DNA of 24,095 nucleotides from contig JBMSQQ010000052.1 in NCBI GenBank assembly GCA_049423385.1, forward strand, positions 1 to 24,095, in the 5' to 3' direction. The DNA comes from Silvanigrellaceae bacterium. GTDB taxonomy: Bacteria; Bdellovibrionota_B; Oligoflexia; Silvanigrellales; Silvanigrellaceae. The position numbers and the translations under genes were made by a program. Under the pieces are notes generated by a model. It saw only the letters and a list, made by a program, of their open reading frames with translations, was not told the DNA's origin and did no database searches. Positions 2,722-20,779 of this stretch are shown in pieces; within the stretch, counting starts at the first letter, position 1; the number at the start of each line of letters is the position of its first letter.

Positions 2722-4047
2722 ATGCTGCCGTTATCAACCTCGCCCCGATGCAGACTTCCCCAGGGATTTGGCCTGGGCGGGCACATTCCAACATCGGTTT
2801 TCAATGCCGCGGATTCTTTCAGCCAAATTGAATTGGGCTTCCCTGACGGCGCCAACAGTTCCGAATTATTGATGTTGAAGGCCATCATCGAATCGATGCG
2901 AGGAGCCGGGGAAACAATTCCAAATCCGGCCGTGGGCTGCCTTGTGACCCAAAACGGCAAAATTGTCGCACGCGGTGCCACGGAAAAGCTTGGAGGTCGT
3001 CATGCCGAGCGGGTTGCTTTCGACAATGCCAAGGAAAATCGGATAAGTACGTCTGGATCGGACGTCTATGTGACGCTTGAGCCGTGTTCACACCACGGCA
3101 GGCAGCCACCCTGTTGTGATCTTTTCAAGGGCGCCGGGGTACGGCAACTCTTCGTGTCCATTCCGGATCCCAATCCGGCCGTGAATGGACGTGGCCTTTC
3201 ATTTGTCAAAAACGAAGTCGAGAGCCTGCACGTTGGACTTGGCAGAGCGGCCGCAACCGCTTGGCATCTGCCTTTTCTTTGCCAACAACGGCTTTCAAGA
3301 CCTCTTGTCGTGGGCAAGTGGGCGCAAACCCTGGATGGAGCCCTGGCTGATACATCGGGTGAGTCGAAATGGATCACCGGGCCCATGGCCCGCGCCTATG
3401 GGCATTGGCTCCGCCTCAAATACGATGTGACCGCCATTGGTCTCACAACACTGCTCAACGATCAGCCATCGCTGAATGTCAGGGACTGTTGGCGTCCCAA
3501 CAATCGACAACCCAACGTCTGCATCATTGATGCCTTGGGAGAGGCGTCACTGGATGAATCAAGGCTTTTGACGGGTCTCGTCCGAATCCAGAACGCTGCC
3601 TCGAACCGAAAGGTCGCGCTCGCAACCACCGTGGAAAACCGGAGCCGCCTGCTCGGAAGGCTACCGAATTCGATTGATATTTTGGACTTGCCCGACGCGA
3701 GTAACGAATCGGGTCCGCTCTCGCACGCACACGCCATCCACCAGTTCTGGAATTCCCGACAAATGCAGGAATGGCTCGGTCGACCTGCACAGAGCATCTT
3801 TATTGAGGGAGGTGCGAAACTGCTTTCGTCCATGCTCGAAATTAACGCATTGGATGTGATGCATGTTTTCGTTGCACCCATGCTGCTTGCCGGACAAGGA
3901 AGGCGCATCGGGCGCGAAAATGACCCCTCACCAAAGCTTTCGGACGCGGCGCATTTTGACGTTCTCTCCACGTTCGCCCTTGGCAATGATATGCTTGTTG
4001 AACTGGCTGCCAAGCACACAGTGACAGAGTTCTTTTCCGAAGGATGA
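2722..4047 (+). CDS. ribD: Bifunctional riboflavin deaminase/reductase RibD
   Basis: PNPAVG, HAE and TLEPCSHHGRQPPC deaminase motifs; K-AQTLDG, SKWITG and IEGG reductase motifs. The start is uncertain because ~45 aa precede the canonical N-terminus. Confidence 0.93.
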   Translation: MLPLSTSPRCRLPQGFGLGGHIPTSVFNAADSFSQIELGFPDGANSSELLMLKAIIESMRGAGETIPNPAVGCLVTQNGKIVARGATEKLGGRHAERVAFDNAKENRISTSGSDVYVTLEPCSHHGRQPPCCDLFKGAGVRQLFVSIPDPNPAVNGRGLSFVKNEVESLHVGLGRAAATAWHLPFLCQQRLSRPLVVGKWAQTLDGALADTSGESKWITGPMARAYGHWLRLKYDVTAIGLTTLLNDQPSLNVRDCWRPNNRQPNVCIIDALGEASLDESRLLTGLVRIQNAASNRKVALATTVENRSRLLGRLPNSIDILDLPDASNESGPLSHAHAIHQFWNSRQMQEWLGRPAQSIFIEGGAKLLSSMLEINALDVMHVFVAPMLLAGQGRRIGRENDPSPKLSDAAHFDVLSTFALGNDMLVELAAKHTVTEFFSEG

Positions 4048-4056
4048 ACGCAGACA

Positions 4057-5106
4057 ATGTCGGAAACAACGCCGCATAGCGAAATTCCAATCCCACAGGG
4101 CGCCGCATTGTTGATCCCGGAAGCACAGTCTGTTGCGCCTTTCAAAACCGACAAACTTACACCACTGCTTTTGAGATTCTTGAACAGACTCAAACAAACA
4201 GGAAAATCGGTCCACACAATCTCGGCTTATCGCAACGACCTCTCAACTTTTTGCCAATTCCTGATTGAGGAATGCATCGACCCGAGAGATTTTCAGTCGC
4301 GTTTCCAGGACCGATGGACTCATTATCTTGTGACTCACGGCCGAAAATCACCTGCGAGTATCCGAAGGGCCTTGATGAGCGCCCGGACTTTTCTACATTT
4401 CCTGATCAAGGAAAAAATCATCGAACGATCACCACTGCTCGAAGCGAAATCACCAAAACAACCTGCACACGAACTCTTGGTTGTAAAATCCGAGCACTAC
4501 CACACGCTTGTCAATCGCCTCTCTTCAAGCGCAAGGTCAGGTGATCCCAAGGCCATCCGCGACCTCGCACTTATTCAACTTCTCGGCGAATGCGGACTCA
4601 AGGCATCGGAAGCGGCGCAAATCAAGTGGTGTGACATTCTGGTCGAAGGACAACCATCAGATGAAGGCTGCAACGTCACAATAAGAATTGCCGGGCAGAA
4701 CGAACGCATGGTGAAAGGCGATTCGGGTATCGCAAAGACACTCTCCGATTTGCGTTCAGCCCGAATTCATCTGTCGCTCAGCGCAGAACCCCAAGACAAA
4801 CTCTTCTTCGGTTTTTTGAACGTCAGTCGAAGATTGAAGTCAGGCGGCCTGCACCGGCATGGTGTGAAATTTGTCATCTATGAAGTTTGCGAAGAAATTA
4901 TCGGAGTCCCTTACAACTCGGAAAGCCTGCGCAATCACGCCATCATGCGCTGGCTCGACATGGGTCTGAGCAGCCAACAAGTTGCACAGCTGGCGGGATA
5001 TTCTTCATTGAATTCACTGGAACGGTTCCGCACCAAGGCGGGAAACAACCGTCGGCCAATGCGCAAAACAAGAAAAACGGGCATTGAAGGAAACAATTCC
5101 AAATGA
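4057..5106 (+). CDS. XerC/XerD-like tyrosine recombinase-fold protein with a degenerate catalytic site
   Basis: N-terminal core-binding domain (S-HTISAYRNDL, SPASIRRAL), box I IRDLALIQLL-ECGLKASE, box II SESLRNH...VAQLAGYSSLNSLERF. Catalytic positions are substituted (see findings). Confidence 0.85.
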   Translation: MSETTPHSEIPIPQGAALLIPEAQSVAPFKTDKLTPLLLRFLNRLKQTGKSVHTISAYRNDLSTFCQFLIEECIDPRDFQSRFQDRWTHYLVTHGRKSPASIRRALMSARTFLHFLIKEKIIERSPLLEAKSPKQPAHELLVVKSEHYHTLVNRLSSSARSGDPKAIRDLALIQLLGECGLKASEAAQIKWCDILVEGQPSDEGCNVTIRIAGQNERMVKGDSGIAKTLSDLRSARIHLSLSAEPQDKLFFGFLNVSRRLKSGGLHRHGVKFVIYEVCEEIIGVPYNSESLRNHAIMRWLDMGLSSQQVAQLAGYSSLNSLERFRTKAGNNRRPMRKTRKTGIEGNNSK

Positions 5107-6011
5107 GCGAAATCATCGGGCATTGTGAAATTCTGGAATTGGTCGGCTCAGGTGGACTGGGAGAAGTTTATCGGGCCAAATACGTCAAGACAGGCAACAT
5201 CGTTGCGCTCAAGCGTCTGCACGAAAAGTATCAGACAAACCCGAAATTGCTGGGTTTGTTCCACAAGGAAATCCTGATGCACGCGCAGGTTTCGCACAAG
5301 CATTGCGTGAAGTTCATTGAAGCAGACCTGACGCCACCGAATGCACATATCGTCACAGAGTTCATCGAAGGTATCAATTGCCATTACCTTGTGAAAAAGG
5401 TTGGACCACTTCCACCCCTGGTGGCTTGCAGCATCACTCTGGATTTGCTCCAGGGACTCGATCACATTCACTGTCTCGACATGATTCACTCGGACCTCAC
5501 ACCTGCAAACATCCTGCTCGAAGTCACCGGTCGCACGGTGCTCGCGGACTTTGGCCTCAGCTGCAATCAGGAAGTTGAAGACTACGAAGGGATGACAGTT
5601 GGTACTCCTGGCTATCAGGCACCCGAGAGATTGCAGCACGAACCGATGACGCCACTGGCCGACATTTACAATGCAGGGATCATCCTGCACGAGCTTCTCA
5701 CAGGCGATCGAATTTTCCCGAATCCCGATCCAAAAGATGTGATGGCTCGAATGAAGAACTTGCCAAACAAGATTCACACCAGTGGTGACGCAAAGGTTGA
5801 CGAATACATTCAAAAAATGCTCAAAACTGCGCTTCATCTGAACCCGCAAAAACGTTTCCCCTCTGCGCGAGATTTCATGTTTGCCCTGTATCAGGTGCTC
5901 AAGGCATACGACATCCGCTACACGAGAAGAGCAATTTTGCAGTGGATGGCAGACGTGAGAATCACGAAAAACAAACCCGTCGAACCCAAGCAAACCATCT
6001 ACATCAGATGA
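5103..6011 (+). CDS. Cytoplasmic Hanks-type Ser/Thr protein kinase (non-RD)
   Basis: GSGGLG, VALK37, E56, HSDLTPAN, DFG and GTPGYQAPE motifs; no TM segment. ATGA overlaps with both neighbouring genes. Confidence 0.92.
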   Translation: MSEIIGHCEILELVGSGGLGEVYRAKYVKTGNIVALKRLHEKYQTNPKLLGLFHKEILMHAQVSHKHCVKFIEADLTPPNAHIVTEFIEGINCHYLVKKVGPLPPLVACSITLDLLQGLDHIHCLDMIHSDLTPANILLEVTGRTVLADFGLSCNQEVEDYEGMTVGTPGYQAPERLQHEPMTPLADIYNAGIILHELLTGDRIFPNPDPKDVMARMKNLPNKIHTSGDAKVDEYIQKMLKTALHLNPQKRFPSARDFMFALYQVLKAYDIRYTRRAILQWMADVRITKNKPVEPKQTIYIR

Positions 6012-6811
6012 AATCGCCTCACACCGGAAAACGAATTGTTTCCCTGGTTCCGAGCCTGACGGAAACACTTTGCCGTTTTGGATTGATCGATTCAGTGGTG
6101 GCCTGCACCAGCTTTTGCGTTGAGCCACGTGAACTGCGTTCGAAGGTGCCCTCAGTGGGCGGAACAAAAGACCCCCGCATGGAAGAAATCATTGCGCTGA
6201 AACCAACCCATGTTGTCGTCAACAGCGAAGAAAACACAACAAAATTCATCGATCAATTGAACGTTGAAAAAGACAAGTCTGGATTTGAGGTTCTGGAAAC
6301 ATTCATCGAGAAGCCGGAAGACAATTTCGCGCTTGTCACCTTATTGGGAAAAACCTTCGACTTTAGTCATGAAGCAAAAGTCTGGGTGGAACACCAAAAA
6401 AATTCCTTGCTCGATCTCAGAGAAAATTCAAAAAATCTCAGCCCATTCCTTTACAGCTATTTTATATGGATGAATCCATGGATGGTTGCAGGCGATCGAA
6501 CCTACATCGCTTCAACACTCGCACTTGTTGGGGGAACAAACACGATTTCGACATCCAGCAATCTGGACGAGCGCTATCCTGCAATCGAAGCAAGGGATGA
6601 CCGATTGTCGAATGCGAATGTTCTTCTGTTTTCATCTGAACCATATCCATTCAAAAATCGGCATATTGAAGAATTTCGTCGTCAGTCTGAATTAAAGCAG
6701 CCAATGCTCAAAGTTGATGGACAAGCGCTGAGTTGGTATGGCAGCCGATTTGAACAAACCTTGCAGTACCTCGGGAGGCTCCGTGAAGAAATTCAAAAAT
6801 CGCTGGATTAA
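6008..6811 (+). CDS. Helical-backbone metal receptor (BtuF/cobalamin or Fe-siderophore binding-protein-like)
   Basis: RIVSLVPSLTETL, VGGTKDP, IIALKP, SSEPYPF and VDG-LSWYG motifs. ATG at 6008 overlaps the kinase stop codon (ATGA). Confidence 0.85.
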   Translation: MKSPHTGKRIVSLVPSLTETLCRFGLIDSVVACTSFCVEPRELRSKVPSVGGTKDPRMEEIIALKPTHVVVNSEENTTKFIDQLNVEKDKSGFEVLETFIEKPEDNFALVTLLGKTFDFSHEAKVWVEHQKNSLLDLRENSKNLSPFLYSYFIWMNPWMVAGDRTYIASTLALVGGTNTISTSSNLDERYPAIEARDDRLSNANVLLFSSEPYPFKNRHIEEFRRQSELKQPMLKVDGQALSWYGSRFEQTLQYLGRLREEIQKSLD

Positions 6812-9559: not shown

Positions 9560-10888
9560 GTGAGTCAATACTCTCAACTCCATCTGACAAACGACTCGTT
9601 CATTTATGCTTGCCAATCGGAATTCGCAGCACGCACGAAAAAAGACGGTTCGTTCAATTCTCATCTTCGCTACGAAGAATTCCTGACCGGAAATTTCCAG
9701 CGGCCAGAAAATCCAACGATGAAGGATTTTTCGCAAGTCGTTCTGGCCATTGCGCGCCACCACAGCCAGGCGACTCCCCAGTTTCGCAGACACGAGCCAA
9801 TTAATCTAGAAACTGTTTCCTATTTCACCTGTGCAATTGCCACACTGTTCGCTGACCTCGAATCAGCGTGCCGTGAATTTTTCGGAACCGGTCTGCCCAT
9901 CATTCCAGAAAATCCGCCCGAATATTCCACCGAAGCCCCTTTTGCCAATGCGCTTCTGAATGCCCGTTCGGCCTGGTTGGCTCAACCCGCATCCGATGCC
10001 GCAGACAGCGACGCCTTCGCAGCATTTCCGCGGAGCGAATTTCCATCTGTCACGACGGAACTTCAGGCTCAAACATGGTCGTGTGAAATTTGGGATCTGC
10101 TTGCCGATGCTTTGTTTGCTTCGCTGGGCGACTATGCAGACGCTGCCATGGGATTCGCGTATTGGAAGTACCAGCAATCACCCGAACGAGCTGCAATCGA
10201 TTGGCGCATTCGTCCACCCGTGGGCGAAGCATATGCCAAAGCATTCAAGCCACTGCTGAGAAGTGCACGTGGAGATCGCGGCGACAGAGGCGATCGCGGA
10301 GGCCGACCCGACCGTGGTGATCGCGGCGACAGAGGCGATCGCGGTGGACGTCCCGACCGTGGTGATCGCGGCGACAGAGGCGATCGTGGTGGCCGTCCCG
10401 ACCGGGGAGAACGTGGCGACAGAGGCGAACGTCGGCCTCATCACGCCGAACGTGCTGCCCAGCCTGGTCACACCGAACGTCCGGACAACAGGGAATTCGA
10501 ACGCAAGGCCGAAACCGAGTCGCAACCTGGCTCAGCTGAGCGCCAAGAACGAGCACCAAGAGAACACAAGCCGCGCGAGTCGCGACACGAAAATCCTCGC
10601 CGCGGAGGTGGAGACCGCAACAGATCCGATCGACCACAACGCGGTTCAGGTGGCCAGCCGGGAGCCGGCCAGTCGAGCGAACAGCAGTTGTTTGAAGCGC
10701 TGGAGGAAGTTCGCGTGGCAGCTGCTTCGCTGAAGCAGAACCCAGGTCAGGGTGAAGTTCAACTCAAGCCGAACAACAGCTTTATCCGCCGCCAACAGCA
10801 CAGCCTCGCGGTCGAAATGGGTTTCGACACAGAAAGTCGCGGTGAAGGCAAGGATCGCGGCGTCGTTCTGCGGATGACTCAAGGTTGA
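9560..10888 (+). CDS. Putative RNA-binding protein: unknown N-terminal domain, RG/RGG-rich disordered region, C-terminal R3H domain
   Basis: C-terminal LKPNNSFIRRQQH...TESRGEGKDRGVVL fits R3H (RxxxH at 10787-10801). GTG 9560 lies 8 nt after AAGGAG (9546-9551). Confidence 0.75.
   Translation: MSQYSQLHLTNDSFIYACQSEFAARTKKDGSFNSHLRYEEFLTGNFQRPENPTMKDFSQVVLAIARHHSQATPQFRRHEPINLETVSYFTCAIATLFADLESACREFFGTGLPIIPENPPEYSTEAPFANALLNARSAWLAQPASDAADSDAFAAFPRSEFPSVTTELQAQTWSCEIWDLLADALFASLGDYADAAMGFAYWKYQQSPERAAIDWRIRPPVGEAYAKAFKPLLRSARGDRGDRGDRGGRPDRGDRGDRGDRGGRPDRGDRGDRGDRGGRPDRGERGDRGERRPHHAERAAQPGHTERPDNREFERKAETESQPGSAERQERAPREHKPRESRHENPRRGGGDRNRSDRPQRGSGGQPGAGQSSEQQLFEALEEVRVAAASLKQNPGQGEVQLKPNNSFIRRQQHSLAVEMGFDTESRGEGKDRGVVLRMTQG
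10268..10432 (+). repeat. In-frame 45-bp tandem repeat, 3 full copies plus a partial, encoding RGDRGDRGDRGGRPD
   Basis: Units start at 10268, 10313, 10358 and 10403, with an internal 9-bp RGD subperiod. Confidence 0.92.
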
Positions 10889-10904
10889 GAATCGGCGAGT
10901 GATC

Positions 10905-10950
10905 AAAAAAAAGCAGGCGCGATGAATCAGTCTCGCGCCTGCTTTTTTTT
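10905..10950 (+). terminator. Strong intrinsic terminator with symmetric A8/T8 flanks
   Basis: A8, GCAGGCGCGA, 10-nt loop, TCGCGCCTGC, T8; starts 16 nt after the R3H gene stop. Confidence 0.93.
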
Positions 10951-10956
10951 GCGTGC

Positions 10957-12327
10957 ATGTCGTCAAACATGCTTCATCGATTCAACCTGATTGGGGAAAA
11001 TCACCACTCCCCACAGAACACATTTTTCTTTGATTCAAAAAGCCAAATTGAAAAATTGATGGCGAACGCCTCCAGATGTTTACCCATCTGGTTGCTCATG
11101 GTTAGCATGCTTCTTTCAAAAAACCAGAGGAACGCAGATTCGCATCTCCAGGACTGGTCGCGCCTCGAATTCTTTCAACAAATCAGGGAGCGAAGCATCG
11201 ATTTCGCAGACCGCGATCCCGAAATTGCCGAACTGAGATTGAACTTTCTCTCAAACACGAAAATCAAAAATGAAAATCTCATGAATGAATTCCGCGAAGC
11301 GGGATTGTCCCACCTCTTGGCGCTTTCGGGTGGGCAAACAGGGCCGGCAGCAACGGTCATTTGCCACACCTTGGTCGTTGTTGTCTGCCTTCTGCTCAGG
11401 GGGCTCTTCCCGCGCCTCAATGCCAGGTGTTTTCTCAATGCCTTGCGTCTCTTCTCACTCCTCGTGCAATCGACGATTTTGCTTTTCCTCGTCGGACTTT
11501 ACCAGAGCACAGGAGCACTCACTCGAAGCCTTGCAAGCCAGATGACTCGTGGAGCTCTTGCACTCTCGGTGCTCAAAAGCAGCGGCGACAGCAAGGGTGT
11601 CAAATGGCTCTCCACATTTTCAATCTGTTCACCCTGGTTGCTGAGTTGGCTGTGGCATCAAAATCCCGCATACGACCTTTCCTTCATTTTGTCGCTGATG
11701 GGAGGTCTCACAGCCAGTCTTCAATTTCATCTGGTCAGCAGGCTCATCGAATTCAAAAAGCCCGAACAGAAAAAGAACAGTATTCTGGAAACCAAACTGC
11801 ATTATATTTTGAACCATCGACTCGTGGGCTGCTGTCTTCATTGGACAATGACAACTGCAATGACAAGTGCAGCAATGACATTCATGACATTGCCCTTGTG
11901 GCCCGCAGGTCATCTTCCCGACAAAATTTTCGCAAATCTTCTGGCGGGTCCGTGCGTGTTGTTTATCGTGACTCCCGCTTCTCTTGCTGTTTGTCTGGGT
12001 GTTCTCATTGAGTCGAATTCATGGACGCTACTTTCCCAAAAGTTCCTTTCATTCGGACTCCACCTTTTGCGCGAGATCGCACGCGCATTCTCGACAGGAC
12101 CGCAATTCGGTGAACTGATGAATAACAATGGGCCGAATCTTGAAGTGCAAATGTTCGTCGAATTTCAACCCACACTGATCATGGTCGCCGAAATTGCGGT
12201 TCTCTATTTTTGCCTGGAGGTTGTCCGGGAAAAAGGAAGGGGTGCCGGCCCAAAAGGCAGAGTGTGGCAGACTCAACCCACTGAAAGACGGAGCCCTGAC
12301 TCACACCCCCTCGAGAGAATCAGCTAA
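10957..12327 (+). CDS. ComEC/Rec2-family competence-domain membrane protein (divergent)
   Basis: AGLSHLLALSG, G..TRS, LSFILS and ANLLAGP motifs with multiple hydrophobic helices. Start uncertain (ATG 11059 is an alternative). Confidence 0.72.
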   Translation: MSSNMLHRFNLIGENHHSPQNTFFFDSKSQIEKLMANASRCLPIWLLMVSMLLSKNQRNADSHLQDWSRLEFFQQIRERSIDFADRDPEIAELRLNFLSNTKIKNENLMNEFREAGLSHLLALSGGQTGPAATVICHTLVVVVCLLLRGLFPRLNARCFLNALRLFSLLVQSTILLFLVGLYQSTGALTRSLASQMTRGALALSVLKSSGDSKGVKWLSTFSICSPWLLSWLWHQNPAYDLSFILSLMGGLTASLQFHLVSRLIEFKKPEQKKNSILETKLHYILNHRLVGCCLHWTMTTAMTSAAMTFMTLPLWPAGHLPDKIFANLLAGPCVLFIVTPASLAVCLGVLIESNSWTLLSQKFLSFGLHLLREIARAFSTGPQFGELMNNNGPNLEVQMFVEFQPTLIMVAEIAVLYFCLEVVREKGRGAGPKGRVWQTQPTERRSPDSHPLERIS

Positions 12328-16861: not shown

Positions 16862-17632
16862 TTATCTTGAAATTTGTTTGCGCAAAGCGAGCGCCTTCTT
16901 TTCAATGGCTGCATCGGGCTTTGCTTTCAAAATTGTGTCCAACTGATTCAGGGCTTGTTTTTTGTCACCGAGTCGATGAGCGACGGCGGCAAGTTCCAAC
17001 TGCGGCTCAAGGCAACCCGGACAAAAATCAACGGCCCGCTGAAAAGATGCCCGTGCTTCCTGCAATCGTCCAGTCGTCATCTGACATTTTCCGATATTAA
17101 AATAGGGCGCGGAGTAGGTAGGGTCGATATCGATGGCCGCACGAAATTCAGGAATGGCGCGATCACAGCGCTTTTCTTCGAGCCAGGTCAGGCCCATGTT
17201 CAAATGCACCCGCTCCATGAACTCATATTTACCGCGCTTGAAAATTTCGCCCAACGAAACACGAGCGTCCTTTTGTCGACCCAGAAGTATTTGCGTGTAT
17301 GCAACGTTCAGTCGGGCAGCATCGTTGGCCGGCTCGATGCGCAGCACATTGGCGAAGCTCTTCAGCGCGCCTTCGGGGTTGTTGAGTCCCAACAAAGAGA
17401 TACCCAGCAGCATGTGGACTTCCGAAGAAGCCGTTTCGGATTTCGATCTCTGCAAAAGGAACTGAACGGCACGTTGATACTCGCCTTGCCCCACCATTTG
17501 CCGAGCAAGCTCAAGACTTGCTTGTTGGTTTCTGCTTTCGGGCGTGTCGGTGCCGGTGCTCGCACATGCCGTCGCAAGCACCAATAACGCTATGGCAGTT
17601 GAAGCAATCCATTTCATAAAACGACCCATCAC
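16862..17632 (-). CDS. TPR lipoprotein, PilF/PilW/Tgl pilotin-like
   Basis: Lipobox LATAC after a hydrophobic signal, then ~5-6 TPR repeats. GTGA overlap with the ftsK stop; lies directly upstream of rodZ, as pilF does in many Proteobacteria. Confidence 0.72.
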   Translation of the reverse strand: MMGRFMKWIASTAIALLVLATACASTGTDTPESRNQQASLELARQMVGQGEYQRAVQFLLQRSKSETASSEVHMLLGISLLGLNNPEGALKSFANVLRIEPANDAARLNVAYTQILLGRQKDARVSLGEIFKRGKYEFMERVHLNMGLTWLEEKRCDRAIPEFRAAIDIDPTYSAPYFNIGKCQMTTGRLQEARASFQRAVDFCPGCLEPQLELAAVAHRLGDKKQALNQLDTILKAKPDAAIEKKALALRKQISR

Positions 17633-20022
17633 ACCTGAGACATCGTTCCACGTTCCGACGACAACACCTGTCTGGGCTTTCCAGCGATATCGCTTGGGCC
17701 CACGAGACCATCTTTAACCATGCGATCCATGAGCCGCGCTGCCTTGTTGTAACCAATGCGGAAATTTCGCTGAAGGCTCGATGTACTCACGGTTCCCGAG
17801 CTGACGGCAAAATCGATGGCGCGGTCGTAAAGGTCATTCTCGTCCATCTGCGAGGTGTCGCCACCTGCCTCGTCAATTTTTCCTCCCGCACCCGCGTCAT
17901 TTTTTTGGCTGATTTGCTGAGCATTCCGTTGAACCGCAGCCATGGTGTCGTTGTCGTATTTCGCTGGATAAAGTTCCCGCAGCTTTTCGCTCAATTGATT
18001 GATTTCGCGATCGCCAATGTATGCTCCATGACCTCGCACAATCCGACTTGTTCCTGGAGGCAGGAACAACATATCGCCCTTGCCCAACAATCTCTCGGCG
18101 CCAATGCTCTCGATGATGGTCCTGCTGTCATGCTTGGATGCAACCTGGAACGAAATGCGACATGGCAGGTTTGCCTTGATGACGCCAGTGATGACGTCAA
18201 CGCTGGGCCGTTGTGTGGCGAGAATCAAATGAATCCCCGCCGCCCGTGCCTTTTGTGCGAGTCGCTGGATGGAATCTTCGATGTCGCGCGGAGCGGTCAT
18301 CATCAGGTCACACAGCTCGTCGATGACAACAACAATATAGGGCAGGGGAGCTGGTGTTTCTCCAGCCAGCTGTTCAACAGTGAGACGGTTCGCCTGAACT
18401 TCCTGGTTGAAGGCTGCTATGTTTCGCACCGCAGCCCGACGCATCAAGAGATAGCGTCGCTCCATCTCATCAATCGCCCACTTCAGGGCACCCGCTGCCT
18501 TGGAAGGATCCGTGACCACAGGCATCAGCAGGTGACCAATTCCGTCGTAGTTCGAAAGCTCGAGCATCTTCGGGTCAACCAGAATAAAACGAACCTGTTC
18601 CGGAGAGCGGGACATCATCAAACTGAGCAGCGTGACGTTGATACCCACTGATTTTCCAGAACCCGTTGCGCCGGCAATCAACAGATGCGGCATCCCGCTG
18701 AGATCTGCCACGAGTGGAGAGCCATCCACATTTTTACCCAAGGCCATCGGCAAGGGTGTGGTGGTATCGCGGAACTGGCCGTGGCTCATCACATCGCGCA
18801 AGGCAACAATCTCGCGAACCGGAGCAGGGACTTCAATACCTATCGTGCTTTTGCCCGGTTGCGGCGCCATGAGGACACTTTGCGCCTTCAAGCCCAGTGC
18901 CAAGTCCTCCTGCAAGGAAAGCACCTTGGTCACCTTGATGCCCGATGCTGGCTCGAATTCATGCACATTCACCACGGGCCCGGGCTGACTCTTGACGACA
19001 CGTCCGGTGACTCCAAAAGTCCCAAGCTTCATCGCCAACAGATGCGCCTGTGCCTCGAGACCCTTTTGAATGGTGAGGCTGTCGCCCTGGGTGGACATTC
19101 CCTGTGGAAGAATCTCCATCAGTGCGTCGAACGTCTGCACCGAAACACTCGCATTCGTGGGTTTGTTGTTCTGCTTGAGCATCGGTCTCAAGGTTGAGGT
19201 CTTCTCGCCAGGCGGCTGGTTGGATTCGGCAATTTTCTGGGCCATGAACAAGGATTCAGTAGCCACTGTTCTTTCCGCAGGCTTGCGCTCAGGCATTGTC
19301 ACGACAGGCTTGCGTGTCACTTCAAGGACGTTCTCTTCTTCCGATCGCTGAACCTCTTTCACGGAATTTGACTTGGCTTCCCTGGCATCCGTCGTTGAAG
19401 CCTCGGCAGCAAGTTCACGGAAACGGCTCCATGGCAAACGACCCAAGAGCCAGACAACCGTGGACACTGGATTCACCCCAAGACACAAAGGCAAACTTGT
19501 CAGCAAGCCTGCGGACAAAACAACCCGTGCTCCGGAAATTCCGAAATTGGGAATCAGCGCCGCAAGTGTTTTGCTGCCCAACCAACCCGCAACCGGAAAA
19601 CCGATTCCAGAAAATGCAATTTCTTCGCGCACCGAACTCAGCAAACCCAAAAGGCACAGTGCAAGCTGGGGATATCCAAAGATGCGCATGACCCAGCGAG
19701 GACGCACGCGTGGCCGCTGAAACAGCTGAAGACTGTGAACGAGCGCAATCGCACTGAAGACGTAGGCACCCACTCCAAAAAATTGAATCAGCCATTCAGA
19801 GAGATTCGCGCCGAATGCACCCAGGATGTTGAAATAGGTTGAGCCATTGGGCATCTTCGAAGTCAGGACGAGATGAAACGTTGAAGCGTCCTTGGGATTG
19901 AACGAATAAACAGACAGGCAAACAACCACCGCAGCCGACAGGGCAACGAGTGCAAAGTAATCGGACACAAAAACAGAATTCTTTTTTGAATCCGAATTCC
20001 AATTTAAACTGAAGCGACCCAT
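17629..20022 (-). CDS. ftsK: DNA translocase FtsK
   Basis: N-terminal TM domain (NILGAFGA), Walker A GATGSGKS, VVVIDE, ATQRPSVDVITG and gamma domain STSSLQRNFRIGYNKAAR. ATG 20022 with GAGGG RBS is preferred over 20079, which overlaps the divergent gene. Confidence 0.96.
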   Translation of the reverse strand: MGRFSLNWNSDSKKNSVFVSDYFALVALSAAVVVCLSVYSFNPKDASTFHLVLTSKMPNGSTYFNILGAFGANLSEWLIQFFGVGAYVFSAIALVHSLQLFQRPRVRPRWVMRIFGYPQLALCLLGLLSSVREEIAFSGIGFPVAGWLGSKTLAALIPNFGISGARVVLSAGLLTSLPLCLGVNPVSTVVWLLGRLPWSRFRELAAEASTTDAREAKSNSVKEVQRSEEENVLEVTRKPVVTMPERKPAERTVATESLFMAQKIAESNQPPGEKTSTLRPMLKQNNKPTNASVSVQTFDALMEILPQGMSTQGDSLTIQKGLEAQAHLLAMKLGTFGVTGRVVKSQPGPVVNVHEFEPASGIKVTKVLSLQEDLALGLKAQSVLMAPQPGKSTIGIEVPAPVREIVALRDVMSHGQFRDTTTPLPMALGKNVDGSPLVADLSGMPHLLIAGATGSGKSVGINVTLLSLMMSRSPEQVRFILVDPKMLELSNYDGIGHLLMPVVTDPSKAAGALKWAIDEMERRYLLMRRAAVRNIAAFNQEVQANRLTVEQLAGETPAPLPYIVVVIDELCDLMMTAPRDIEDSIQRLAQKARAAGIHLILATQRPSVDVITGVIKANLPCRISFQVASKHDSRTIIESIGAERLLGKGDMLFLPPGTSRIVRGHGAYIGDREINQLSEKLRELYPAKYDNDTMAAVQRNAQQISQKNDAGAGGKIDEAGGDTSQMDENDLYDRAIDFAVSSGTVSTSSLQRNFRIGYNKAARLMDRMVKDGLVGPSDIAGKPRQVLSSERGTMSQV

Positions 20023-20056
20023 CGAGCACACCCTCGTCTGGAACAAAGGAGAAGAT

Positions 20057-20779
20057 ATGGAGACACTGCCGACAGCCATTCAGGCTCTCGTCTCGGACGC
20101 CATGATCGGACTATTGTCACCCTTGGATTCTCTCAGATTCATGCGTTCCAAAAAATCGGTTCTGGTCATGGGACTGGCGCCTTACCTTGTTGCCATTGTC
20201 CTGTATGGTGTGCTTGTGGCCCGCTGGGTGATGCCGTTGCTGACCGGATTTCTTATAGAAAAACAGCTGATTCCGGTTGGCTGGAATGGCCTCATCCTGC
20301 TCGACATCATCATCTGGATTTTCGCCCTGACCCTGTTTGCCATTTTGGGGCCTGCCTTCGTCAACACGCTTGCCAGTCCTCTCTTTGATGTCGTTGCAGC
20401 AAGGACGTACGAACACGTGGGTCGGCAAAAATTGCCGGCTGGTAGCCTGTCCACGGCCGTTCGCAGTTTTTTGGGTGAATGCTCAAAACTGGCAATTTGG
20501 CTCATGATCACGATATTTTTGGCATCCATTCCATTTGCTGCAATATTGGGCGGTCCATTCGCGCTCTGGTTCATGGGCTGGACCCAAGTCGACAGAACCC
20601 TCAACCTTAAAACCATGCACCTGCGCGAGAGGCTGCTTTTTGGCCTTGAACACGTACCGGCCTGCATTTGCCTTGGAATCTGGGGGCTCATTCCCGGCCT
20701 CAACACGCTGTTCACCTTCCTCATGGCCTCTGCGGGTGCCGTCGTTGTTGCAAAAGCTGAGCAACGTAATAATCAATAA
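20057..20779 (+). CDS. EI24/CysZ-like membrane protein
   Basis: Hydrophobic helices and a LASPLFDVVA-RTYE segment resembling the CysZ/EI24 family; AAGGAG RBS. Confidence 0.65.
   Translation: METLPTAIQALVSDAMIGLLSPLDSLRFMRSKKSVLVMGLAPYLVAIVLYGVLVARWVMPLLTGFLIEKQLIPVGWNGLILLDIIIWIFALTLFAILGPAFVNTLASPLFDVVAARTYEHVGRQKLPAGSLSTAVRSFLGECSKLAIWLMITIFLASIPFAAILGGPFALWFMGWTQVDRTLNLKTMHLRERLLFGLEHVPACICLGIWGLIPGLNTLFTFLMASAGAVVVAKAEQRNNQ

Follow-up and report, generated by a model that had tools for sequence, protein, structure and literature searches.

A pseudo-recombinase, that is, a protein with both domains of an Xer-type tyrosine recombinase but without its catalytic set, is encoded in a 24,095-nucleotide stretch of DNA from a Silvanigrellaceae bacterium (NCBI GenBank assembly GCA_049423385.1, contig JBMSQQ010000052.1, forward strand; the whole stretch is hereafter called the window). 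The gene, at 4057..5106 on the plus strand, and its protein are both designated PX. The reading that is favored, with some reservation, is that PX is a vertically inherited, XerD-derived protein that binds one particular sequence of the chromosome, leaves it uncut and acts in chromosome handling as a landmark or scaffold. Recombinase folds without activity are an established kind, and PX is distinct by the extent of the replacement, by its phylum-wide occurrence in a single copy and by the genomes in which it is the sole homolog. No description of the PX family was found in the literature searched, which did not cover subscription journals, and the recombinase survey PMC8138268 mentions neither Bdellovibrio nor Oligoflex.

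Fold and replaced catalytic residues

Tyrosine recombinases are characterized by a catalytic R-K-H-R-H/W pentad and a tyrosine nucleophile. Alignment of PX with six canonical XerC-type proteins, which is gap-free through box II, revealed that K182/N215/E289/R292/Y315/F324 occupy the positions of the Xer residues R/K/H/R/H/Y. Five of these six positions are changed; the tyrosine nucleophile is gone and four of the five phosphate-activating residues are replaced, leaving Arg-II alone (Table 1). A preliminary description of the window, made from its sequence alone, had reported the same five changes in an intact open reading frame (ORF) with both domains and a basic C-terminal tail, and the alignment bore out this account, including all residue numbers and nucleotide coordinates and the box II spacing (R292 at +3 and Y315 at +26 from E289, and F324 at +9 from Y315). 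The loss of the lysine of the GKG-K loop, noted in the same description, likewise holds for PX, with the refinement that the family varies at position 215 (N in 45, G in 10 and K in 8 of 91 sequences, with other residues in the remainder).

The substituted residues are themselves under constraint. A word-indexed search retrieved 90 relatives of PX at 39-82% BLASTP identity, followed by a gap to canonical XerC at 25-27%. K182, E289, R292, Y315 and F324 are invariant in 91/91 relatives, down to 35% identity, and R168, A183, E185, R217, K271, A295, I296, G303, A313, G314 and S320 are invariant across the same 91 sequences. PX is under strong purifying selection, with a ratio of nonsynonymous to synonymous substitution rates (dN/dS) of 0.075 for the pair L006-L089, the sole unsaturated pair among those listed; in the other listed pairs with the window, dS is saturated and dN is 0.13-0.79. 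An incomplete locus (L097) and a locus with the same termini as L087 (L088) were left out of this count. Contigs of four runs from another study cover positions 3900-6100 of the window at at least 99% with no indel, and differ from PX at two places within the gene, both synonymous (L113 and R236). The earlier proposal that PX is not a product of random decay but a conserved non-catalytic protein is upheld by this invariance, by the dN/dS value and by the independent contigs, together with the occurrence in 124 of 131 genomes and the two intact paralogs described below.

The ORF encodes 349 amino acids, from an ATG start to a TGA stop that overlaps the ATG of the next gene. Both Pfam domains of the two-domain tyrosine recombinase fold (PF00589 and PF02899) are present above their gathering scores, and T54, Y58, D61, R104 and R110 of the core-binding domain are invariant in PX, the sister family described below and a canonical XerC. 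The isoelectric point (pI) is 9.7 overall, 10.0 in the core-binding domain and 12 in the tail, the last 25 residues containing 9 K/R and 1 D/E. An AlphaFold (AF2) model computed from the 91-row alignment has a mean predicted local distance difference test score (pLDDT) of 85.8 and a predicted template modeling score (pTM) of 0.71; its last helix stops at residue 325, beyond which it is coil with a pLDDT of 47-69. A Foldseek search of the PDB with this model returned XerA (E 1.3e-10), Cre, IntI and XerH. VIA-align gave a Z of 20.4 to XerA (260 aligned residues, with a root-mean-square deviation (rmsd) of 16.1 that reflects a differing domain arrangement), 19.6 to Cre (271 aligned, rmsd 4.9) and 18.4 to XerH (277 aligned, rmsd 6.1); lower matches were SroF (9rgl, Z 14.3; 9rd5, Z 14.0), YopR (8bpz, Z 13.2) and MrpR (8a0a, Z 12.7). 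As Z is 18-20 to XerA, Cre and XerH, the predicted fold of PX is a complete Xer/Cre-type clamp, minus the usual C-terminal helix, which builds the synapse in Xer-type recombinases. As a side observation, the best PDB sequence match, chain 9i5v_14, is a 401-residue chain labeled 'Ribosome-associated translation inhibitor RaiA'. Over residues 9-276 it can be aligned with Xer-type recombinases, the motifs LRHSFAT and LLGHDSL being intact, and the entry would seem to be mislabeled or a fusion.

Sister family, distribution and descent

A profile of 91 PX-family sequences was searched against 1.84 billion representative proteins, and the six positions were read in 150 listed matches. The PX family itself ranked first, its full-length members scoring 374-483 bits and its shorter fragments less, and was followed by a dense set of proteins of 290-310 residues. 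Most of the top 150 matches listed belong to a group with the signature K-(R/K)-E-R-L-H, designated the sister family. The commonest signatures among these 150 were K-R-E-R-L-H (50) and K-K-E-R-L-H (19), and the canonical R-K-H-R-H-Y was read in 22. Intermediate sets also occur among the matches listed, namely K-N-Q-R-H-Y in P0105, R-Y-Q-R-H-L in P0108 and R-N-Q-R-F-Y in P0172. Motifs shared by the sister family are GLKxSE, RHG[LIV]KF, LNxExLRH and LGLRRLGNIAKH. Its source names include an Oligoflexus metagenome-assembled genome (MAG) and unclassified 'Deltaproteobacteria' and 'Pseudomonadota' MAGs; NCBI taxonomy places Silvanigrellales in Oligoflexia, Bdellovibrionota. Many sister-family proteins are labeled 'site-specific recombinase XerD' or 'integrase' in public sources, and such labels on PX-type proteins wrongly imply working dimer resolution or a mobile element.

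The distribution was assessed with a sister-family profile (E <= 1e-20) in 131 species genomes of the window's GTDB phylum, which represent one class and 19 families (f1, the window's own, to f19). A match was found in 124 of the 131 species genomes, in 81 of 83 high-quality genomes and in 53 of 55 genera, and almost every genome with a match has a single strong one; completeness is 72-94% in the seven genomes that lack a match. PX is thus a near-universal single-copy gene in the phylum. The scores were 158-185 bits in f1 and f2, bar one partial match of 98 bits, and mostly 229-387 bits outside these two families. The six positions, read in 50 loci covering 18 families, are K-(R/K)-E-R-(L/V)-H in f4-f19, except for f15 with Ser at His-II; K-N-Q-R-H-Y in f3; and K-x-E-R-Y-F in f1 and f2, except for K-K-E-R-L-F in one f1 genome (G105). 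Glu/Arg at box II is therefore found in 16 of the 18 sampled families, the exceptions being f3 (Gln) and f15 (Ser). The equivalent of Y315 is Leu in the sister-family loci, apart from Val in L135 (f4) and His in L134 (f3), and is also Leu in G105. The PX match holds one in-frame TGA in each of the three genomes of the genus g40 (G047:C1:1505233-1506099, G048:C1:2015798-2016658 and G049:C1:1787654-1788517), which may be the end of the gene or may hint at another reading of TGA.

Regarding the origin of PX, the NCBIfam XerD model (TIGR02225) gave 82.8 bits and the XerC model 78.0 bits, both far under the equivalog cut-offs of about 330 (329.6 for XerD). The XerD model scored above the XerC model in all six members tested (P0001, P0105, P0366, P0157, P0112 and P0134, with XerD/XerC bits of 82.8/78.0, 169.9/151.6, 135.8/121.8, 107.9/88.5, 103.4/83.1 and 100.8/75.2, respectively), although the margin of P0001 itself is small. 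In a maximum-likelihood tree of 64 proteins, the PX type, the sister type and the f3-like intermediates lie on one side of a branch with a Shimodaira-Hasegawa-like approximate likelihood-ratio test (SH-aLRT) support of 84, with the canonical enzymes opposite; the support is 89 for the window type and 95 for the window type jointly with the long-branched P0104. The simplest reading of these sequence data is that the PX locus would be one ancient XerD ortholog that lost Arg-I and His-II first, and His-III and Tyr afterwards. The path would thus be ordered, with Arg-I changed to Lys and His-II to Gln/Glu at the stage represented by the K-N-Q-R-H-Y intermediates, and His-III and Tyr changed later.

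The first steps of this path appear to have been repeated independently in Clostridia. Two proteins from Clostridium and Thermoanaerobacterium, P0229 and P0233, are named XerD or site-specific tyrosine recombinase and share the first decay steps of PX (Lys at Arg-I and a changed His-II). P0229 (K-K-Y-R-H-Y) passes the XerD equivalog cut-off (346.1 vs 329.6 bits), and P0233 reads K-K-S-R-Y-I, with no Tyr nucleophile. Unlike PX, both resemble canonical XerD far more closely and branch separately within the canonical enzymes, which points to independent decay.

PF00589 matches four proteins in the window's genome, which is 90.6% complete, namely PX, two Xer-like proteins and one integrase of 444 amino acids. 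The two Xer-like paralogs, L001 (G000:C73) and L002 (G000:C27), have the intact R...HxxR...H...Y set, with the motif HxxRAT...LLNH...TTTxxY. This intact pair is found in 31 of 32 f1 genomes and in 0 of 98 other genomes of the phylum (this query, E <= 1e-15), and it probably constitutes the working recombinases of f1. The equivalog cut-off of TIGR02225 is reached in none of the 131 phylum genomes. As for separate canonical xerC and xerD genes, a matter raised in the preliminary description, the genome does contain two Xer-like paralogs with intact motifs, but none over the XerD equivalog cut-off.

Many genomes outside f1 have one match to the XerD model (E <= 1e-25), and it is PX itself (e.g., G048, G049, G054, G074 and G092). 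Among five genomes searched with PF00589, PX is the sole match in the single-contig genomes G048 and G049 (f15), so that it persists there without another tyrosine recombinase; one or two matches besides PX occur in G074, G087 and G092, and L160, the one inspected, has phage-type integrase motifs. XerD works together with XerC at dif and is activated by the gamma domain of FtsK. No FtsK gamma domain was found in G048 and G049, and these genomes may lack Xer dimer resolution altogether. ScpA and Smc are present in all five genomes tested for them (G000, G048, G049, G074 and G119), the Smc of G000 being split over two contigs. In the window itself, PX and a full-length ftsK, which encodes 4TM, alpha, motor and gamma domains, are separated by about 12.5 kb; this closeness is not kept in G119, where the two genes are about 2 Mb apart.

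Readings of the function of PX

PX is probably a non-cutting DNA-binding protein, because it is basic, keeps the core-binding motif, has R267 and K271 in common with canonical XerC, and belongs to a group in which RHGxKF is kept across families. R267 is found in 90/91, H268 in 89/91 and K271 in 91/91 relatives, and RHG[LIV]KF is kept in the sister family, f4-f19. The helix equivalent to the R267-F272 region reads DNA bases in Cre and XerD. The constancy of the RHGxKF motif suggests one conserved DNA target. According to the mechanism proposed here, PX would keep the two-domain clamp by which Xer proteins grip DNA, would bind a specific chromosomal sequence without cleavage and, once bound, would act as a landmark or scaffold for chromosome handling, akin to Smc-ScpAB unloading or the recruitment of topoisomerase IV (Topo IV). 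A more speculative thought is that K182, E289 and R292 may have stayed invariant as parts of a salt-bridged pocket, which would grip a backbone phosphate without chemistry. A role specifically in Smc function or at the terminus is suggested by analogy and is put forward only tentatively.

The analogy is drawn with XerD of Bacillus subtilis. This protein is also a working recombinase, which PX cannot be, and its unloading of Smc-ScpAB is not known to need catalysis. PX scores best on the XerD model and the five genomes tested have Smc and ScpA. Unloading of Smc-ScpAB by B. subtilis XerD at terminus XDS sites is described in two reports (PMC11894783, PMC12322038). XerC of Escherichia coli scaffolds Topo IV at dif, where the catalytically inactive XerC K172A/Q restores Topo IV cleavage (PMC4865107). 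A site-bound Xer protein can thus have a structural function, although here the function is an additional one of an active enzyme, and of XerC rather than XerD.

Other systems are comparable in the loss of catalysis. In the streptococcal/lactococcal XerD-like protein YnbA, two residues of the R-H-R-Y tetrad and the extreme C-terminus are missing, and the protein shows no recombination and no specific difSL binding (PMC1914069). YnbA and PX are both chromosomal Xer-type proteins in which catalytic residues and the C-terminal region are lost. However, PX is not a member of the YnbA family (24.6 bits, E 2e-5, vs the NF002685 cut-off of 178), has lost five of six residues including Tyr, as compared with the two tetrad residues reported for YnbA, and belongs to another phylum. 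Firmicute K-type proteins nest inside the canonical enzymes in the tree, in which YnbA itself is not included, implying independent loss. TnsF of Tn6022-like Tn7 transposons has an inactivated tyrosine-recombinase domain co-opted for DNA target recognition (PMC10293859). TnsF is transposon-borne, with N-terminal zinc fingers and tandem core-binding domains, whereas PX has a plain Xer architecture. PX has one core-binding domain and no zinc-finger match, and no Tn7 or transposon Pfam family was found in the larger ORFs of the window. The yeast kinetochore protein Ndc10 employs a recombinase fold for non-catalytic DNA binding. It is eukaryotic, much larger and not among the 50 structural matches listed for PX, and serves as an analogy only.

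Xer recombinases are textbook enzymes that resolve chromosome dimers, and their catalysis-independent jobs (Smc unloading and Topo IV recruitment) are a recent addition that is hard to separate genetically from recombination. As catalysis is fully lost in PX, selection is strong and PX stands alone in some genomes, it would provide a clean system for a binding-only Xer function. A broader and decidedly tentative scenario is that the lineage turned a XerD ortholog into a near-universal single-copy pseudo-enzyme, giving up Xer dimer resolution while keeping the terminus-marking for Smc-ScpAB unloading or a related step, and that the window's family re-acquired recombination via the intact Xer-like pair. 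If this is true, the lineage is a natural separation-of-function mutant for the non-catalytic job of XerD.

Several points weigh against a chromosomal landmark or scaffold derived from XerD. The DNA binding, the sequence specificity and the role of PX in chromosome organization are inferred. Support for grouping PX with the sister family and the intermediates is only moderate (84), and the statement that PX is the only tyrosine recombinase depends on one Pfam model (E <= 0.001) and on two genomes that are 91-93% complete. The neighborhood gives no link to chromosome biology, being ribD - PX - (kinase) - (binding protein) - SNase in the window's family and a two-component sigma-54 operon with a deaminase in the sister family, and no linkage of PX to scpAB or ftsK was found in the 20 neighborhoods examined. 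Inspection by eye of the 160 bases that precede 11 sister-family genes showed no shared motif; no motif-finding program was run on them. In addition, the former active-site residues are invariant rather than relaxed, and the pocket could hold a new chemical or ligand-binding job.

The strongest competing explanation, though an unlikely one, is that PX is a transcription factor, its recombinase fold having been turned to sequence-specific repression or activation. Phage proteins whose entry titles name them as repressors, YopR/MrpR of SPbeta and SroF of phi3T, use the recombinase fold as a DNA-binding regulator and are among the structural matches of PX (Z 12.7-14.3). These repressors are not known to be catalytic. 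The sister-family gene also faces a divergent operon over a gap of 30-190 bases in most loci, which is a common layout for regulators. On the other hand, the Z values to the repressors are well under those to Xer/Cre (18-20), a common fold does not in itself reveal a function, and the sequence is nearest to XerD. PX begins 9 bases after the end of ribD and lacks a separate promoter region, and the inspection by eye gave no conserved upstream motif. YopR/MrpR and SroF are prophage-encoded, whereas PX stands among housekeeping genes as a lineage-wide single copy. With one copy through 19 families and a putative recognition motif that hardly varies, PX is more readily explained by one conserved chromosomal target than by a local regulon.

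It is rather improbable that the main partner of PX is something other than DNA, with PX serving the co-transcribed Ser/Thr kinase as adaptor or substrate, or being a factor tied to RNA or the ribosome. The start of the kinase gene overlaps the PX stop, the kinase follows PX in most assessable loci of the family and is better conserved than PX, and RNA-related neighbors occur in the wider family (TadA-like deaminase, SpoU methylase and S15). However, the kinase is lacking in six assessable loci and in the conserved neighborhood of the sister family, and PX keeps the core-binding domain and the basic charge of a DNA clamp.

Still more improbable is an enzyme with a rebuilt active site, in which Y315 or another residue would be the nucleophile, E289 the general base, and K182 and R292 would hold the phosphate. 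The invariance of K182, E289, R292 and Y315 in 91/91 sequences goes beyond the needs of a relic pocket, and in genomes without another tyrosine recombinase a dimer-resolving activity would otherwise be missing. The preliminary description had also offered Y315 as a displaced nucleophile, a role that is unlikely because orthologs carry Leu there: the position is Leu in 16 other families (Val in one, His in f3), and G105 of the window's own family reads Leu/Phe at the two sites. The former Tyr position is Phe or His, so that at neither candidate position is Tyr kept throughout the orthologous group. No other Tyr of the domain is kept throughout either, Y275 being His, Ser, Asn, Ala or Thr in several loci. 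Moreover, the position of the general-acid Lys varies within the family, and the usual C-terminal helix is absent from the model.

Finally, the idea that PX is a normal xerD which recently became a pseudogene or was misassembled can practically be dismissed, as it is ruled out by the intact frame, the same residues in 91/91 sequences, the dN/dS value and the contigs of the other study with their two synonymous differences.

Gene neighborhood

The neighborhood does not point to a function, but it shows that PX is inherited vertically on the chromosome and is no mobile element; the gene order is shared with relatives. The order in the window is peptidase M3, a small ORF, ribD, PX, a Ser/Thr kinase, a periplasmic-binding-type protein and SNase, followed by uvrC on the other strand and, further along, by ligA, ftsK and leuS. 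These neighbors do not indicate a prophage location beside lysis-lysogeny genes.

Table 1. Positions of PX, its domains and key residues, and selected other genes in the window.
Feature	Coordinates	Strand	Basis or remark
PX, pseudo-recombinase gene, putatively XerD-derived	4057..5106	+	ORF, Pfam, AlphaFold model, fold matches
N-terminal core-binding (SAM-like) domain, residues 40-120	4174..4416	+	PF02899 Phage_int_SAM_1, E 1.5e-9
Catalytic-fold domain without catalytic residues, 152-325	4510..5031	+	PF00589 Phage_integrase, E 1.2e-7; XerC-type alignment
K182, Arg-I position (GLKASE)	4600..4602	+	Lys in 91/91 of family; Lys also in sister family
N215, beta-hairpin Lys position (AGQNER vs KGNKER)	4699..4701	+	Family-variable; mostly R/K in sister family
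R267-H268-G269-V-K271-F272, start of helix before box II	4855..4872	+	Family conservation
E289-S-L-R292 replacing H-x-x-R of box II	4921..4932	+	E289 and R292 each 91/91
E289 codon, His-II position	4921-4923	+	XerC-type alignment
R292 codon, Arg-II kept	4930-4932	+	XerC-type alignment
Y315, His/Trp-III position	4999..5001	+	Tyr in 91/91 of Silvanigrellales-type set
F324, Tyr-nucleophile position	5026..5028	+	Phe 91/91; His across most of sister family
Basic, probably disordered C-terminal tail replacing usual last helix	5029..5103	+	K/R vs D/E count; low pLDDT
ribD	2722..4047	+	RibD_C and deaminase domains; ends 9 bases before PX; syntenic in close relatives
Ser/Thr protein kinase	5103..6011	+	Pkinase, E 1.2e-46; start overlaps PX stop (ATGA)
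R3H-domain protein, 463 amino acids	9497-10888	+	
ftsK, full-length	17629-20079	-	

The kinase lies behind PX in 15 of 21 assessable family loci, a count that includes L007 and L086, which have identical match patterns and are probably the same DNA, and it is absent in L091, L092, L093, L094, L098 and L099. Among relatives, the kinase is better conserved than PX (62-97% vs 41-82% identity). As an obligate partner of PX, it was rejected on account of these six loci and of its absence from the sister-family neighborhood. Its catalytic loop reads HSDLTPAN; the usual kinase loop being HRDLKPxN, the neighbor of PX would be a non-RD kinase with Thr replacing the loop Lys.

In the sister-family loci, a gene for a TadA-like deaminase of about 200 amino acids follows the PX gene in the same direction in 12 of 14 cases (L135-L149), and the upstream side is occupied by a divergent operon with a histidine kinase, a sigma-54 response regulator and a SpoU methylase. 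A deaminase-domain gene, ribD, is located directly upstream of PX instead in the window's family. Elsewhere in the window, relatives match both ends of the R3H-domain protein but not its middle (about 258-397), and this middle part coincides with the highest G+C content of the window (0.59) and a positive GC skew (10001-11000).

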